IMG/VR virus record: IMGVR_UViG_2757320708_000001
Span: 1-36,391 of that record
Source of the DNA: a virus
DNA: 36,391 nucleotides
Strand: one strand, 5' to 3'
Every line of letters starts with the position of its first letter. Within the stretch, counting starts at the first letter, position 1. Positions 5,444 to 25,270 of this stretch are shown piece by piece. Made by a program: the position numbers and the translations under genes. The notes beneath the pieces were generated by a model. That model saw only the letters and a list, made by a program, of their open reading frames with translations, was not told the origin of the DNA and did no database searches.

Positions 5444-6751
5444 TTAACCACCTAAATTACTAAATCTCATTAAGTTTATTATTCTATTACAAATTTCTTC
5501 ATTTTGTACTTTTCCAATTTGTAGATCTATGTCTAATGCCTGTAATAGAATTTGAATATCGATACTTTGCTCTTGTCTTCTAGATTCTAAATTATTGCAA
5601 TTTACATAGTTATTAATACTATTTATTTTCTGTTGAATTAATTCAATTAAAGCTTTCAAAATTGATGGATAGAGAACTCTTGCATTTATAATTTTATCAT
5701 AAGTTTTTTTAATTGCTAATTGAATAATATGAATTCTATCTAATATTGCAGATGTAAATATTTGATAATTTTGTAAATAATCTTCTATATCTGGATTTAC
5801 TAATTTATTAATTGTATAAGAATATGGATTTCCAGCGTAAATAATTGGAATACATTTTTGAATAGTAGCAGATTTTGACTCTGTTCCAGCACCTCTTGTC
5901 CAAATACAATTTTCAATTCCAGTTGATAGAGTTGAATTTATAGTATTTAATTCTTTTGTTGAAAAACCATCTTTCCAATTTTGAATTTCATCAAATATCA
6001 ATCCATTTGATAAAAATACAGCTCCATACATATTATTTCGGGCATCATAAACTAGATTTGCATAAGTTGGAGCTTCTGTATAATATCTAAAATTGAAAAC
6101 TTCTTGTAAAATCATAAAAGTTGTAGTTTTTCCAGTTCCTCTGTTAGAAATTTCAATATAATTAATTTGTCTTTTTGTAATTGGAGATTTGAATAATGGA
6201 AATAATCTAGGGAGAAAGAGAAATATATCATTTATTTCCATTTTTGATGGATCATATCCAAAACTTTGCAATAAAAGTGCATAAGTTGAATATTCTGAAT
6301 TTGCTAATTCAAATAATTCTTTTGCAATTTCATAATTGTTGGGTGGCTCAATTGAATAAATATCGCTAATGTACCAGTCTTCTATACCTTTCCTAATTTT
6401 AACAAACATATAACTAGTTATCAAATTATAGAAATCTTCAGGATTATCAGCTATAAAATGTGGATCGAAATTTGCAGTAAAACCATTTTGAAATTTTGCT
6501 ATTATTTCATCATCTTTAACTTTAAAATTAACAATTTTCGAAATAAACTTAACTTCATCATTATATAATAAATAAGACTGAAAATATTGTTGATCAATTC
6601 CGCGTTTGTAAGCTTTAAGAATTTCAACTTTTTTTGAGTCTTCAATTTGTTTTCCAGATAAAATTATATTTAAAACTCTTTCTGTATCTCTTGGATTATA
6701 AAAAAAAGAATGAGATTTTATTTTTTCAAGAAGTTGAGTTGAACTACTCAT
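5444..6751 (-). CDS. AAA+/P-loop ATPase, putative helicase (SIRV2 ORF436/gp18 homolog)
   Basis: Walker [10 protein letters not shown], Walker B LIFDE, and AILDR arginine-finger region. Lies between the SSB and the nuclease. Confidence 0.9.
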
Positions 6752-16729: not shown

Positions 16730-16801
16730 ATATCATCAATATAAAAATTTTTATATGACAAATTTAAACATATATATGTCATAATTTTTAAGTTTAATTT
16801 G

Positions 16802-17185
16802 ATGAATTTTAGACAATCTGGAAAATATTATGAATATAAGACACTTAATTATCTTGAAAAACATGGATACAAAGCTATAAGAATTCCAGTTTCTGGAACT
16901 GGAAAACAGCCAATTCCAGATATTATAGCAACTAAGGATAATACAATTTTTCCAATTGAAGTTAAATCAACTTCACAAAATTATGTTGTAGTTGATAATT
17001 TTCAAATTGATAAATTGTTTAAGTTCTGTGAGATATTCAATTTTTGTAATTGTAAACCGTTAATACTAGTTCATTATAAAAAATATAAAAATGTCATAAT
17101 ATATAATTTGAGTCAAGATGTCAGAACAAAAGAAAAAATCAAATTTACCTTCAGAGCTAACAGCAAAACTGTATTTAGCACTTGA
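16802..17185 (+). CDS. hjc: Holliday junction resolvase (Hjc family)
   Basis: GKYYE, RIPVSG, PDIIATK and IEVKST PD-(D/E)xK motifs. Confidence 0.95.
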   Translation: MNFRQSGKYYEYKTLNYLEKHGYKAIRIPVSGTGKQPIPDIIATKDNTIFPIEVKSTSQNYVVVDNFQIDKLFKFCEIFNFCNCKPLILVHYKKYKNVIIYNLSQDVRTKEKIKFTFRANSKTVFST

Positions 17186-17327: not shown

Positions 17328-17741
17328 ATTACTATTTTTTTCAAGTTAAAGAGATATCAAGTTTGATATAACTCTTTTCATCTAAAATTTTTTTCTTTAT
17401 AAATCTCGTTACACTCTTTCTTTGCGTAAAATTACGTTAAGAAAAATAAAAATATCGAGAGATAAGAGTTTTAAAAGATTTCTTGTAAACTAACGCGTTT
17501 GGTTTATATACTCATCATTACAATTTCTTAGCAAGATGATGAGAAAAAATATCATCTGGAGAATTGAAAGAAAGAGATTATAAAAAATAGTGACAAAAAA
17601 TGTAAATAAAAAAATCGAAAAACAAAAAAGTTTTTACTTCTTCAGTTGAAAACTTCAAAAAAAGGAAGAAGATTTTTACATAAAACAATTTTTACTTTTA
17701 CAACAACATTTATAATTTTATAATATACACATGATAATAAT

Positions 17742-20700
17742 ATGAGTTTCTTATTAAATCTTGGAGATTTAGGTACATTTTTTTCAGATGAGCTAACAGC
17801 ATTAGAGAATTTTGCAAATTTCTTAAGCTCTGATTTTATAAACTTTTTTAGTGCAGTAGTTAATGATATTGAAAATGTTGTAAGTTTCATAGGTCAGGCA
17901 ATTAGTGATATTCCAACTTTTATGCAAAAAATTGCTAACAATTTCTTGACGATTTTGCAAAACTTTGTACAAACTGCAATTCCAGTAGTTTCAGGATTTT
18001 TAACATTTCTTGAACAACAAATTATAAATGTATTTCAAGATTTGTCTTCTTTAGCTTCTACATTTATAAATGATGCATATTCATTTTTACAAGGTGTTGT
18101 AAATGCATTTGCAAATTTAATAAGTACAATAGTTCAAGATTTTCTAAATAATTTTGGTCAAAATATGAAACATATTAGTTCTGCAATTTCTCAAGTTACT
18201 CAATTTTTAACTCCATTTATCGCTCCAGTCACTTTAGGAAAATTTTTGCCAGCAATAATAGATAAATTAGCTGAAATTTTGCCAGAAGTTGAAATTGATT
18301 TAGCGCCAGTTGGCTTAGGCGGAAAAATTCCAATTAACTTTGGAGAAATTGTAAAAGCGTTTGCTGAAACTTCAGTTGACTTTTTAAATGAAGTAAGAGT
18401 AGAAATACAAACTACGCTTAAGGAGTTTATAAAAGAGCCATTTATTTCAGATTTTAAAATTACTGCGAGAGAAATATTTAATGAAATTGGTCTTGGAGAT
18501 TTACCATTTGCAGATCCTCCATTTAGATTAATTGCAAATTGGGTCGGTTCAAGATCATTTTCTGAAATTAAAGACCATCTTAAAGAAACAATTCTATTGA
18601 CTGGATTTCCAGCATGGTTTACTGATGCTTATCTAGAATCTCCAGTTGATGATTTTATACCAAGAAATCCGTTATTTAGACCAGTAAATATAAGAGATGT
18701 AATTTTAGCTTCACAATATGGAATTTTAGACTTTAGTGCAGTTTCTCAATATGCAGAAAATAATTTAATAACTCCAAAAACTGCAAAATTAATGTATCAA
18801 AATGAGACTGCGAGACTTTTACAAAGAGCAGTTGAAGAGGGAATTAGACAATTTGTAGTTACTCCTGAAAAAGCTTATCAAGAAATAATACAAAATGTTA
18901 ATTTAGCTGGTAAAGATTTATATCTAAAAGTTTTCTCTCTTGAGTACAATTATTCAGTTCAAAGAATTGTTAGACAGTTTTTAAGATCACTTTTATCAAG
19001 AGCTTTAACTAATTTTGGAAGACCATACATTGATCTAAAATTCCTAGAATCAACAGTTCAAAAATTATTTAAAGAACTAAATTATCCTGAAGAAGTTCAA
19101 AATGTTTTCAACATAATGATTGAACAATCTCAAATAGTTTATACTAATCAATTACTTTTGACACAATTAGAACAACTTACCAGATTAGGAATATTTGACG
19201 AAAAGAAAGTAAAAGCAGAGTTAAAAGCTAATAACTTTAATGAACAGATAGCACTTACAATTTTGAATTATGAACTTCAATATGTACAATTACAATATAT
19301 CTTGAAACAATACCAATTCATGTTACAAAATTATATTATTAGTACAAAAGATGCAGAAAATCAATTAAAGAAATTAGGCTTTGATTCATCTATAATTTCT
19401 GAGATAATTTTTGAATATCAAACAGCTCCATTAACAAAATATCAAATTAGCCAAATTGAAAGTTTGGCTAGAAAAGGATATTTATCAGTTGATGAAATTA
19501 AAAAACAATTACATTCATTAGGCATAATTAAGGAATTTGAAGACATATTTATCAATTACACAAGTCAAGAAATTCAAATATCAACAACTTTAAGTATTGT
19601 AAAAGAACAATTAAGAAACTTCCTAATAGATTCGAAAACTGTAGAAAATGAATTAAAAGCATTAAAAATTAATGATTATTTAATAAATGAGATAATTCAA
19701 GAAGAATATAACATAAATATATCTAAATTACAATTATCATATTTAGAAACTTTAGCTAAGAATTTATATTATGATCAAAATCAATTAGCCGGAGAATTAG
19801 CAAAAATTCTAAAAGATAAAACTGCAATAGATCTTTATACTCAAAAATTCTATTATGAATATGTATTTCCAAAAATTGTCAGTTATCACGTTAGTTTAGC
19901 AAGACATGGAATTTCCTCAAATATTTCAAACTTGCCAAAAGAAATTGTAGATTATGAAATTAATCCAGAAATCCAAATTTTCCAACTTACAACAGAATTA
20001 GAATATATAAAATCATTATTAAAAGATTTACAAATAACTCCAACAAATGCTGAAAACGAGTTAATAAAATTAGGAATGCAAAAAGATTTAGCTAATTTAT
20101 TTGTGCAAACTTATATTCCAACACTTTACAGTTTACATACAATTATTGGAAATATTATAGAAGGTCAACTTTACAAAGTTGGAAAAATTCCAATTAATTT
20201 AGGAAATGCAGAAACGCAATTAAGACAATTAGGAATTCCAGAAAACCAAATAAAAATAATTATTGAACAATATGAATCTTCATTTGGCTTAGAAATTTGG
20301 AGAAAATACTTACCTTCACTTTCTCAAATTGAAACTGCAATAAAATATAACTTTCCAATTAACCAATTAGTTGAATATTCATTTATACCATCTGAATTTC
20401 TTAACTTATATTCTAATTTATATCAATATGAATTAATTGGACAATATGTACAATCTTTGAGAAATGAATATATTCAACTTCTCACTTATGGAGTTCAAAA
20501 TATACAATTAGAGAATTTGCTAAAACAATATGGAATAAATCAAGTCCTATTAGAAGTTTTCAAATTATCAGCACAAATTAGAAAATTATTAATGGCTTAT
20601 CAAGAACTTTACATCACTCCATCTAAAGCACTCACAATTAGCGAATATATTAGCAATCCAAATCAACTTTTACAAAAAGTATTTTCCGAATTTCAAGTAC

Positions 20701-20918
20701 CAACAGATTTACAAAATACTTACTTAGAATATGCAAGAAATAGGAGACTTAGAACGTACGTAAATGAAATAATTTCAACAATCAATTTGTTATTTGAAAG
20801 ACAAAAAATAGATCTAAATACGGCTCAACAATACTTACAACAATTAAAACAATATGGTTTAACAAATGAAGAAATTCAATTAATCTTACTTAACTGGCAA
20901 TTAAGAAGTAACTATTAA
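17742..20918 (+). CDS. Large virion terminal-fibre protein (SIRV2 ORF1070 homolog)
   Basis: 1058 aa; helical N-terminus, conserved position, internal helical repeats. Confidence 0.9.
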   Translation: MSFLLNLGDLGTFFSDELTALENFANFLSSDFINFFSAVVNDIENVVSFIGQAISDIPTFMQKIANNFLTILQNFVQTAIPVVSGFLTFLEQQIINVFQDLSSLASTFINDAYSFLQGVVNAFANLISTIVQDFLNNFGQNMKHISSAISQVTQFLTPFIAPVTLGKFLPAIIDKLAEILPEVEIDLAPVGLGGKIPINFGEIVKAFAETSVDFLNEVRVEIQTTLKEFIKEPFISDFKITAREIFNEIGLGDLPFADPPFRLIANWVGSRSFSEIKDHLKETILLTGFPAWFTDAYLESPVDDFIPRNPLFRPVNIRDVILASQYGILDFSAVSQYAENNLITPKTAKLMYQNETARLLQRAVEEGIRQFVVTPEKAYQEIIQNVNLAGKDLYLKVFSLEYNYSVQRIVRQFLRSLLSRALTNFGRPYIDLKFLESTVQKLFKELNYPEEVQNVFNIMIEQSQIVYTNQLLLTQLEQLTRLGIFDEKKVKAELKANNFNEQIALTILNYELQYVQLQYILKQYQFMLQNYIISTKDAENQLKKLGFDSSIISEIIFEYQTAPLTKYQISQIESLARKGYLSVDEIKKQLHSLGIIKEFEDIFINYTSQEIQISTTLSIVKEQLRNFLIDSKTVENELKALKINDYLINEIIQEEYNINISKLQLSYLETLAKNLYYDQNQLAGELAKILKDKTAIDLYTQKFYYEYVFPKIVSYHVSLARHGISSNISNLPKEIVDYEINPEIQIFQLTTELEYIKSLLKDLQITPTNAENELIKLGMQKDLANLFVQTYIPTLYSLHTIIGNIIEGQLYKVGKIPINLGNAETQLRQLGIPENQIKIIIEQYESSFGLEIWRKYLPSLSQIETAIKYNFPINQLVEYSFIPSEFLNLYSNLYQYELIGQYVQSLRNEYIQLLTYGVQNIQLENLLKQYGINQVLLEVFKLSAQIRKLLMAYQELYITPSKALTISEYISNPNQLLQKVFSEFQVPTDLQNTYLEYARNRRLRTYVNEIISTINLLFERQKIDLNTAQQYLQQLKQYGLTNEEIQLILLNWQLRSNY

Positions 20919-20961
20919 ACAACTAAATAAATAAATTTGTCACATTTTTAAACTAGAAATT

Positions 20962-21777
20962 ATGAGCGTTAATTTATGTCATTATGAGGCGGAAAATATA
21001 AGTTATAAAGATTTAGAAAATCTTCAAGGTATGATATATTATGAGATAAAATATGATGGAACACATATTTGTTTAAAGTATGAAAATGAACTAAAAATTA
21101 ATACTAGAAAAGATATACCTCATGATAAAACATTTCAGAATTTGTTTTATCAAGTTCCAAATATTGATGAAATTATAAAATATATAAAAGAACATAACAA
21201 TTATATAATACATGGGGAACTTATACATAAAAAGACATCAGCATTACAGATTCACAAAAATGAAACTCCAGAATTTATAATTTATGATGTTTTTGATAAA
21301 GAAAATAATAGATATTTAAATCCATTTGAAGTTGATAGTGAAATTTACGAATGGTATCCAGAAATTTGTTTAGATTTAGATGATTTACTTGATATTATAA
21401 CTAAAGAAAAACTTGAGGGCTTAGTAGCTAAAATCTATAATCCGAAATTTGCAAATTGTGAAGAAGGCAGAAATTTTAACATGTGTCTTTTCAAATACAA
21501 ACCATATTTTTCAACTTTAGGAGTAATATTTAAACCAATTAGGAGAGAAATTGATGTTAGACAATTAGCGTTTCTTCTCGGCGAAATAGATAATGATTTA
21601 AAGAATAATAAAGATGAATGGTATAGAAATCATCCAGAACTTTACAAGTTCTTTATCGAAAATAAAGATAAAATAATACAGATACTACAAAACGAAAACT
21701 TCATATTACAAATTGAAGAAAATACACATTTAGACATTAAGAAAATTAAAGAATATATTACAAATTTCAAAAGATAA
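20962..21777 (+). CDS. ATP-dependent ligase-type nucleotidyltransferase, probably an RNA ligase (271 aa)
   Basis: Motifs in order: I EIKYDGT, Ia NTRK, III IIHGEL, IIIa FIIYDVF, IV EGLVAK, V FKYK. The C-terminal domain looks helical, with no OB fold. Confidence 0.85.
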   Translation: MSVNLCHYEAENISYKDLENLQGMIYYEIKYDGTHICLKYENELKINTRKDIPHDKTFQNLFYQVPNIDEIIKYIKEHNNYIIHGELIHKKTSALQIHKNETPEFIIYDVFDKENNRYLNPFEVDSEIYEWYPEICLDLDDLLDIITKEKLEGLVAKIYNPKFANCEEGRNFNMCLFKYKPYFSTLGVIFKPIRREIDVRQLAFLLGEIDNDLKNNKDEWYRNHPELYKFFIENKDKIIQILQNENFILQIEENTHLDIKKIKEYITNFKR

Positions 21778-21796: not shown

Positions 21797-21816
21797 TATA
21801 CATAATATTATGTATA
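21797..21816. promoter_or_regulatory. Perfect 20-bp palindrome TATACATAATATTATGTATA upstream of ORF564
   Basis: Self-complementary; related copies at 13522, 15904, 9923, 9983 and 26673. Confidence 0.7.
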
Positions 21817-23734: not shown

Positions 23735-25270
23735 ATGTCTTCAACTTACTGCGTTCAATTACCAGAAAATCTTTTATTATTATCTATGACTACAGTAAAT
23801 CCTATAAACTTTACATCTTTGCAATTTTCATTAAGCGTAAATTCGCTAGTTATATTTCTATTCTCAAAATATCCTTTTAATTCTGGTTATTACAATAATT
23901 TTTGTATAAATCAAGATGAGTTTGGATTTGCACAAGTTGGACAAACTTTCAATATAGATCTATCAAATTATCAAGGATATTATATGCTAATTTTAATTTA
24001 TCCACAAGGAATTAATTTAAAGAGTTCTAAAAGTTGTGTCTCGATTCAAGGTTTAACTATGACTTTTCAGAATACAACAATTTCACCAATTACAAGTGAA
24101 ACTGTAATTAATAATTTTGATGGTCAAGAAGAAACCGGATTTTGTACATGTTATGATGGTCAAAGTCATGTAATAGAAATTCTATGTAATAATTCAAATT
24201 ATGTTTCTGCTATTTTATTAAATAATTTAAATAATCAATTACTAATAATGACTTGTCAAGGATTTGTATATGAAAATAATACAACTGTAGGATTTATAAC
24301 GCCAAGTACATGTGGTACTTTTGGTTCATATTTAACAGCAGAAATAACATTTATTGCAAATCAATCAGTTATAGATTTTCTAAATAATAATAATATCTCT
24401 TATAATATTTTATCATCTACTGAATGTCAACCAACTTATAAATTATTACCATGTACTTTACCATGTAAATCGTTTTACCAAATTACAAAATTATTATCTC
24501 CACCAACTAAATATTCTATAATATCTTCAAAATTATGGAATGAAATTGTACAAGACCTATATCTAACTTATAGTGTATTTAAATATATTAATTATTTAAC
24601 ACAATATGCATATTTAGACTATATATATCCTACAATTTTAGACTTTTATAATTTTTATGAAAACTTTCAACCATATCCATTTACTCAATTATTGTATGCA
24701 CAAAAAGGAATTCCATTAACTGTAAACGATTTTAACAAATTAATAGATGCAATTGTAAAATTAGCAAATGAAAATGATATAAAATTGAAAAAAGGACTTT
24801 CTTATGTTCAGCGTGATCAAGTCGTAAGAGCTTCACAATTTGCAAATATAGTTTATAATGTTAATCAATTTCTAACTTTTAATTATAATCAATATTTTCT
24901 ATTAGATTGTAATGGATCAATTTTCTCGAATTTATTGAATAAACAAAATGCATTTTTAAATGTCATAATTAATAATTTAGTAACTTCACTTAATATTCCT
25001 TCAAACGTTTATATTAAAAACTTATTAATATATACTTTAAATCAAACTATTTATAATTATGGTGTAATAGATAAATTAATAATTAATATTAATAACGGCG
25101 AAATTTATCTTAATGGAAATTCATTTATAAATTTTCTACTTATAACTGACAATAATAATAATATTTATGTAAATGATAATTCAGTAATAAACAATTTAAT
25201 TTGTATTAGTAATACTGGCACTATAAATATCTCATCAAATGCAATAATTAAAAATAATCAATGTGCTTAA
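23735..25270 (+). CDS. Putative virion/adhesion protein (511 aa; C-half probably ORF309-like), with a C-terminal Asn/Ile beta-helix-like region
   Basis: Position after ORF564, W/F-N anchor motifs and NxIxI repeats. Confidence 0.7.
   Translation: MSSTYCVQLPENLLLLSMTTVNPINFTSLQFSLSVNSLVIFLFSKYPFNSGYYNNFCINQDEFGFAQVGQTFNIDLSNYQGYYMLILIYPQGINLKSSKSCVSIQGLTMTFQNTTISPITSETVINNFDGQEETGFCTCYDGQSHVIEILCNNSNYVSAILLNNLNNQLLIMTCQGFVYENNTTVGFITPSTCGTFGSYLTAEITFIANQSVIDFLNNNNISYNILSSTECQPTYKLLPCTLPCKSFYQITKLLSPPTKYSIISSKLWNEIVQDLYLTYSVFKYINYLTQYAYLDYIYPTILDFYNFYENFQPYPFTQLLYAQKGIPLTVNDFNKLIDAIVKLANENDIKLKKGLSYVQRDQVVRASQFANIVYNVNQFLTFNYNQYFLLDCNGSIFSNLLNKQNAFLNVIINNLVTSLNIPSNVYIKNLLIYTLNQTIYNYGVIDKLIININNGEIYLNGNSFINFLLITDNNNNIYVNDNSVINNLICISNTGTINISSNAIIKNNQCA

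Follow-up and report, generated by a model that had tools for sequence, protein, structure and literature searches.

We examined a ligase-like gene in the complete genome of a rudivirus, a rod-shaped Sulfolobus virus (IMG/VR record IMGVR_UViG_2757320708_000001), the whole 36,391-bp stretch of which was analysed and is referred to here as the window. The gene is a real, uncharacterised variant of the RNA-ligase-type enzymes, and on balance its product is best explained as a compact ATP-dependent polynucleotide ligase of the RNA-ligase type, which would seal breaks bearing 3'-hydroxyl and 5'-phosphate (3'-OH/5'-P) ends without end healing. An earlier note on this sequence had proposed a stand-alone RNA ligase at this position, and its claims are taken up below where the results bear on them. 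The gene and its two domains are as follows.

20962–21777, + strand: ligase-like gene, 271 codons plus stop, with an ATG start and a TAA stop
20962–21507, + strand: nucleotidyltransferase (adenylyltransferase) domain, residues 1–182, with motifs I (K30), Ia (R49), III (E86), IIIa (F105/Y108-D109), IV (E152, K157), and V (K178, K180)
21508–21774, + strand: orphan all-helical C-terminal domain, residues 183–271, with five to six helices

Catalytic motifs and family assignment

The six nucleotidyltransferase motifs reported in the earlier note were all recovered in order and at the places it gave: KYDG at residues 30–33, TRK at 48–50, HGEL at 84–87, FIIYDVF at 105–111, EGLVAK at 152–157, and FKYK at 177–180. 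The protein matched the Pfam family RNA_ligase (PF09414) over residues 27–167 with E = 6e-11 and 43.2 bits, above the cut-off of 27, and PF09414 scored 44.9 bits in a six-frame scan of the whole genome. When 5.8 billion proteins were searched by a word index, 37 clusters were recovered, each 66–91% identical and about 271 amino acids long, whose sources were SIRV isolates and hot-spring metagenomes. Across 25 aligned homologues in the same identity range, residues K30, R49, E86, D109, E152, G153, K157, and K178 are invariant and K180 is nearly so. Homologues are labelled "hypothetical protein" in GenBank and "RNA ligase domain-containing protein" by the automatic naming of UniProt, and the protein was assigned to a PHROGs family of unknown function.

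Profile-profile comparison (hhalign) with a phage PF09414 subfamily of about 280 amino acids gave a probability of 99.3% (E = 8e-21, residues 19–162, 24% identity) and paired motifs I, Ia, III, IIIa, and IV of the two families residue for residue. The nearest clusters in the ESM Atlas, found as language-model neighbours, were PF09414 RNA-ligase proteins of tailed phages. Searches against solved structures with the single protein and with the family profile found no ligase, the family being too divergent at the sequence level. As judged from the motifs and profile matches, membership of the 271-residue protein in the covalent nucleotidyltransferase superfamily is confirmed.

Predicted structure and C-terminal domain

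The catalytic part of the model has the adenylyltransferase fold, and RNA ligases were ranked at the top by Foldseek (Rnl3 2vug, Rnl5 5cou, and Rnl1 9do4). The tail (residues 183–271), modelled alone from 15 sequences, yielded a confident all-helical domain of five to six helices (predicted local distance difference test score, pLDDT, 94.6; predicted template modelling score, pTM, 0.86), in keeping with the helical character that the earlier note had expected of the last ~90 residues. It is not the OB fold of the DNA ligases that the note had set against its own reading; no DNA_ligase_A_C match was found, and the protein stops at residue 271. Being confidently all-helical, the tail therefore provides neither an OB fold nor motif VI.

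Comparison of the tail model with the PDB by Foldseek gave no match, comparison with 48,161 chains using VIA gave a best Z of 5.4, which is noise level for helical domains, and searches of the ESM Atlas and BFVD returned only the tail's own family. As modelled, the helical tail is thus a domain without a structural relative outside its own cluster in these three collections.

Distant relatives

When 1.84 billion representatives were searched exhaustively with HMMER, the family appeared as a single 50% cluster, accompanied by 17 weak matches (E from 1e-8 to 1e-3) among 19 in all. Ten of the weak matches were scanned against Pfam and eight proved to be PF09414 proteins; the contigs of two of these were looked up, and both carried tailed-phage-type genes. 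A C-terminal domain common to the viral protein and these phage relatives was suggested by a MAFFT alignment (GEIDND against GAIDK) and ruled out by hhalign of the C-domain profile, which gave a probability of 0.1%.

Only two relatives were found to contain both the catalytic domain, including an FKYKP motif V, and the helical C-terminal domain, namely P0039 (321 amino acids, from a metagenomic sequencing run) and a chromosomal copy in Sulfuracidifex metallicus (WP_277021376 region, locus L018), at 24–28% identity to the SIRV protein. Judged by sequence, the combination of ligase domain and helical tail is also present, though rarely, in cellular genomes, with at least one example in Sulfolobales (S. 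metallicus). Both relatives differ from the viral protein in that they bear an N-terminal extension of about 65 residues, lack its four invariant cysteines, and fall below Pfam detection. GTDB species genomes scanned with a mixed family alignment gave no match, nor did JGI metagenome contigs scanned for the P0039 clade.

The reading frame of the S. metallicus copy (L018:1842–2738) is interrupted by a stop codon just past motif I. Upstream of it, an amidohydrolase gene (260–1430) is split in two, and a 701-residue Ser/Thr protein kinase is encoded downstream on the opposite strand; the copy and the split amidohydrolase gene may be pseudogenes or assembly errors. The four cysteines of the viral protein, C6, C37, C166, and C175 (20977–20979, 21070–21072, 21457–21459, and 21484–21486), are invariant in 25 of 25 viral homologues. 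The last two, C166 and C175, stand on either side of a conserved loop (EG-x-NFN), which is located between motifs IV and V and is modelled with low confidence (pLDDT 32–34). The four cysteines may form stabilising disulfides or a metal site.

Promoter and genomic context

The promoter of the gene and its two neighbours lie at the following positions.

20924–20941, + strand: ligase-gene promoter, a TATA-like A/T run (20924–20938) followed by the rudiviral GTC element (20939–20941)
17742–20918, + strand: upstream neighbour (ORF1058), homologue of open reading frame (ORF) 1070 of SIRV2 (P1070), a minor structural or terminal-fibre protein, 72% identity
21859–23559, + strand: downstream neighbour (ORF566), homologue of SIRV2 ORF564 (P564), a DUF2341 structural protein, 71% identity

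We compared 16 copies of the gene, comprising that of the window and those of 15 IMG/VR loci from Yellowstone isolates and metagenome contigs. The sequence AAATTTGTCA upstream of the start is invariant in all 16, so that the TATA/GTC promoter claimed in the earlier note is present and conserved. Elements of the TTTGTCAT type are also found upstream of many other genes in the genome, and a GTC after the TATA box is reportedly a feature of SIRV1/2 promoters; the sequence evidence supports a virus-type promoter belonging to the ligase gene itself. The position of the GTC, 21–23 nucleotides before the ATG, implies that the mRNA would be leaderless or near-leaderless. A scan for sigma-70 promoters and terminators gave counts equal to those of shuffled sequence and was set aside as inapplicable to an archaeal virus.

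The gene sits between the ORF1070 and ORF564 homologues in 15 of 15 related IMG/VR loci, as it does in the window, and in SIRV2 the two flanking genes are adjacent, 121 bp apart, as the earlier note had stated. The GC content of the ligase gene (23.8%) matches that of the genome (24.9%), and the gene is therefore not a recent import.

A perfect 20-bp palindrome, TATACATAATATTATGTATA, lies at 21797–21816, after the stop codon of the ligase gene and before the promoter of ORF566. SIRV2 has a similar one at the same place, as do the isolates V3 and V65, all three being without the ligase gene, and in the junction alignment the ORF566 promoter is likewise kept there; the palindrome is therefore part of the ORF566 upstream region and forms the right edge of the indel. 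In SBRV1 (ORF523, L002:4189–5760) and SRV (ORF533, L023:2989–4590) a different gene of about 525 amino acids occupies the ORF1070/ORF564 junction, and that of SBRV1 is related to the C-terminal half of ORF511 (23735–25270) of the analysed genome. Among rudiviruses, more than one rearrangement has occurred at this junction. The ORF1058 homologue itself varies in length, at 1146 amino acids in SIRV5 (L008:2529–5966), 1012 in two metagenomic viruses (L010:2940–5975 and L012:1098–4133), and 1058 elsewhere. Upstream of the ligase gene, the sequence in these two short forms and in loci L007 and L015 differs from that of the other copies, and in all four the ligase promoter may lie inside the end of the ORF1058-homologue coding sequence.

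Distribution, loss, and selection

All 16 copies are intact, and the median pairwise ratio of nonsynonymous to synonymous substitution rates (dN/dS) is 0.167 (0.158 in the catalytic part and 0.182 in the tail), by which measure the gene is under purifying selection. The survey of rudiviruses that the earlier note had called for was carried out by tblastn of 50,697 phage and archaeal-virus records, and it found the gene only in SIRV4, 5, 6, 7, 10, and 11 and in isolate V60; no other rudivirus genus was found to have it. Comparison of flanks found it absent from SIRV1, 2, and 3, SBRV1, SRV, ARV1-3, SSRV1, and MRV1.

Gene and promoter are both cleanly missing from two Yellowstone isolates, V3 and V65, at the place between the stop of ORF1058 and the palindrome that precedes ORF566. 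In a maximum-likelihood tree built for the upstream neighbour, both isolates nest within the ligase-bearing clade, with V65 sister to V60 (support 100/99). By this tree, the ligase gene was already present in the ancestor of the North American lineage (Usarudivirus), and some members have since lost it or had it removed by recombination. According to their published description, V3 and V65 are plaque-forming lytic isolates (PMC9319562), and the gene is therefore dispensable in culture. Purifying selection together with loss in some isolates points to an accessory gene of conditional benefit.

We considered and rejected a link between the ligase and loss of the AcrIII-1 ring nuclease (DUF1874), as no North American rudivirus has DUF1874 whether the ligase is present or not, and the pattern is clade-wide. 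Where SIRV2 has ORF114 (DUF1874, AcrIII-1 ring nuclease), the window has 414 bp without a sizeable ORF (17328–17741), and tblastn found DUF1874 nowhere in the genome and in no North American rudivirus record of the phage collection. Elsewhere in the window, a 435-residue protein encoded beside a Cas4-like nuclease (5444–6751, − strand) matches a BrxL-like Lon ATPase domain (PF13337, E = 9e-15).

Predicted activity and alternative explanations

In the activity we propose, which is modelled on the conserved chemistry of the superfamily, K30 would attack ATP to form a lysyl-AMP intermediate, the AMP would then pass to the 5'-phosphate end, and attack by the 3'-OH would seal the break, with motifs Ia, III, IIIa, IV, and V holding the nucleotide and metal. 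The orphan helical domain would occupy the place that the OB fold has in DNA ligases and would probably bind substrate, a task performed in other RNA ligase clades by appended domains unrelated to it. The enzyme is quite probably of the RNA type rather than the DNA type because its best hidden Markov model (HMM), profile partner, and language-model clusters are all RNA-ligase families, because it has no OB domain or motif VI, and because the residue five after the motif I lysine, which is H35 in the viral protein, Q in P0039, and N in the phage relatives, is not R.

Several observations weigh against an RNA-type ligase directed at host-inflicted breaks. The motif I context, EIKYDG, is DNA-ligase-like. 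DNA_ligase_A_M (PF01068), which shares a Pfam clan with PF09414, also scores above its cut-off (E = 8.7e-7, 29.3 bits against 26.2), albeit over residues 16–91 only (profile positions 12–86 of 204), and weak TIGR02779 and TIGR00574 matches fall in the same first ~90 residues (12–92). The predicted fold is as close to the adenylation domains of LigD, Lig1, and Lig3 as to RNA ligases, and by itself it cannot tell the two types apart. In addition, the gene lies among structural genes, outside the terminal accessory arms, and nothing connects it to a host nuclease. The interpretation offered in the earlier note is partly supported.

The DNA-ligase-like signals would suit an enzyme that serves viral replication by sealing nicks in DNA or DNA/RNA hybrids. 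Such an enzyme might close the nicks that the Rep nickase or the Holliday-junction resolvase makes at hairpin termini and concatemer junctions, or it might join primed fragments. The location of the gene would suit this as well, as it belongs to the core block and has the Hjc resolvase gene (16799–17185) about 3.8 kb upstream. We nevertheless consider a replicative DNA ligase unlikely, given the missing OB domain and motif VI and the RNA-ligase families to which every best match belongs. A role in replication is further disfavoured because SIRV1/2/3, SBRV1, SRV, the ARVs, SSRV1, and MRV1 have the same replication genes and were not found to have the ligase, which is also deleted in the viable isolates V3 and V65.

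For an RNA-type ligase, the ends that could be joined are narrowed by the rest of the genome. Six-frame searches detected no polynucleotide kinase (AAA_33), polynucleotide kinase (PNK) phosphatase, 2H phosphoesterase, or RtcB, none of these turned up when 20 larger ORFs were scanned against Pfam, and the earlier note had similarly seen no Pnkp-like end-healing gene. A lone ligase acts only on 3'-OH/5'-P ends, and metal-dependent nucleases leave such ends. Because the virus is without an end-healing enzyme, the substrate should already bear a 3'-OH and a 5'-phosphate, as at a nick in structured or duplex RNA or in an RNA-containing duplex, and we infer that this substrate is RNA. The most plausible benefit would be that host or viral RNA is sealed again after metal-dependent nucleases of the host have cut it. 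In a published case, either T4 Rnl1 or T4 Rnl2 sufficed, without healing, to reseal a tRNA that a Toprim nuclease had nicked once to leave 5'-P/3'-OH ends (PMC12445682).

A role in repair or counter-defence is speculative, although it is chemically coherent and fits an accessory gene under selection. In its most specific form, which we regard as doubtful, the protein would represent a new clade of RNA ligases, confined to the Sulfolobales and their viruses and marked by an orphan helical substrate-binding domain, and would serve as a one-enzyme counter-defence that reseals tRNA, rRNA, or mRNA nicked by metal-dependent host nucleases of the PIN/VapC or Toprim type.

The evidence for the enzyme class applies equally to an RNA ligase that remodels RNA instead of repairing it, circularising or joining viral or host RNAs in the manner of archaeal Rnl3 enzymes, which circularise RNAs, and the archaeal Rnl3 structures 2vug and 5d1o are among the top structural matches. 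We think this rather improbable, since the Rnl3-defining N-terminal and dimerisation domains are missing, K30 is near the N-terminus, and no candidate RNA substrate was identified. Finally, the orphan C-terminal domain gives no clue to a substrate and the gene lies between virion genes, as might be expected of a nucleotidyltransferase that halts after adenylylating a nucleic-acid end or a protein, or of an idle structural or regulatory protein. Such an explanation appears very improbable in view of the strong purifying selection and the invariance of all residues for the three ligation steps, and we know of no PF09414 member that stops at adenylylation or acts as an idle protein.

Novelty and significance

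We found no description of the ligase gene in the literature searched, and the papers describing SIRV4–11 and V3/V60/V65 mention no ligase. According to a 2023 review, the thermophilic viral ligases characterised to date are without exception Rnl1 enzymes, and they come from moderately thermophilic phages (PMC10423840). With the present enzyme, a ligase of a hyperthermophilic archaeal virus would be studied for the first time. As its appended domain is confidently modelled, conserved, and without a structural relative, characterisation would add both a clade and a new substrate-recognition module, and a 33-kDa ligase that is active near 80 °C might find use as a reagent. Since natural isolates exist both with the gene (V60) and without it (V65, V3), the purpose of a stand-alone viral RNA ligase can be tested on existing material, and the same question applies to T4 Rnl2. 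Were the counter-defence role true, archaeal viruses would gain their first example of an RNA-repair anti-defence.

Comparison with known ligase systems

RNA ligase clades are distinguished by the domains appended to a common catalytic core, and the SIRV-type protein can be set beside each on this basis. The ATP-dependent DNA ligases (PF01068 plus PF04679; LigD 1vs0, human Lig1 and Lig3, and the Chlorella virus ligase) differ from it in possessing an OB domain and motif VI, which to our knowledge all characterised members use for adenylylation; they also have R where the viral protein has H five residues after the motif I lysine, and its PF01068 match is weaker than that to PF09414.

The earlier note had favoured the Rnl2, Rnl3, or Rnl5 type, and this survives in part, as Rnl3 and Rnl5 are among the top Foldseek ranks while their domain layouts differ from that of the viral protein. 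Rnl3 enzymes (the archaeal homodimers Pab1020/MthRnl, ~380 amino acids) have an N-terminal domain before the nucleotidyltransferase domain, as well as dimerisation and C-terminal domains; the viral protein has no room for the N-terminal one because its nucleophile is residue 30 of 271, and the alignment to Rnl3 5d1o covers viral residues 1–164 only. Rnl5 enzymes (Naegleria and Deinococcus) have an N-terminal OB-like domain and no C-terminal domain, the reverse of the viral arrangement: residues 2–164 of the model align to residues 139–322 of 6vt0, and the N-terminal 138 residues of Rnl5 have no counterpart. T4 Rnl2 (2hvq, 1s68) is about 15% identical to the SIRV-type protein, which is some 60 residues shorter. 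The Rnl2-type C-terminal domain (PF18043, T4_Rnl2_C), which characterises the clade of T4 Rnl2 and kinetoplastid REL, gave no match at E<=10, and neither Foldseek nor VIA retrieved an Rnl2 chain from the PDB for the viral C-terminal domain, a distant relation being possible. The Rnl1 clade (T4 Rnl1, TS2126, RM378) joins a PF09511 catalytic domain to a helical tRNA-specificity C-terminal domain.

The stand-alone PF09414 proteins of phages (about 270–300 amino acids; P0041, P0043, P0045, P0047, and others, all uncharacterised) belong to a different host domain, being encoded by bacterial tailed phages as opposed to an archaeal rod-shaped virus. Their motif I reads KxDGSN where that of SIRV reads KYDGTH, and the regions after motif V have no detectable relation. 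With the viral protein they share a homologous adenylyltransferase domain, a similar size, and a gene that stands alone; for the two whose neighbours were listed, no adjacent end-healing partner was called, and one of the contigs has an RlaP gene (PF10127) about 6 kb away.
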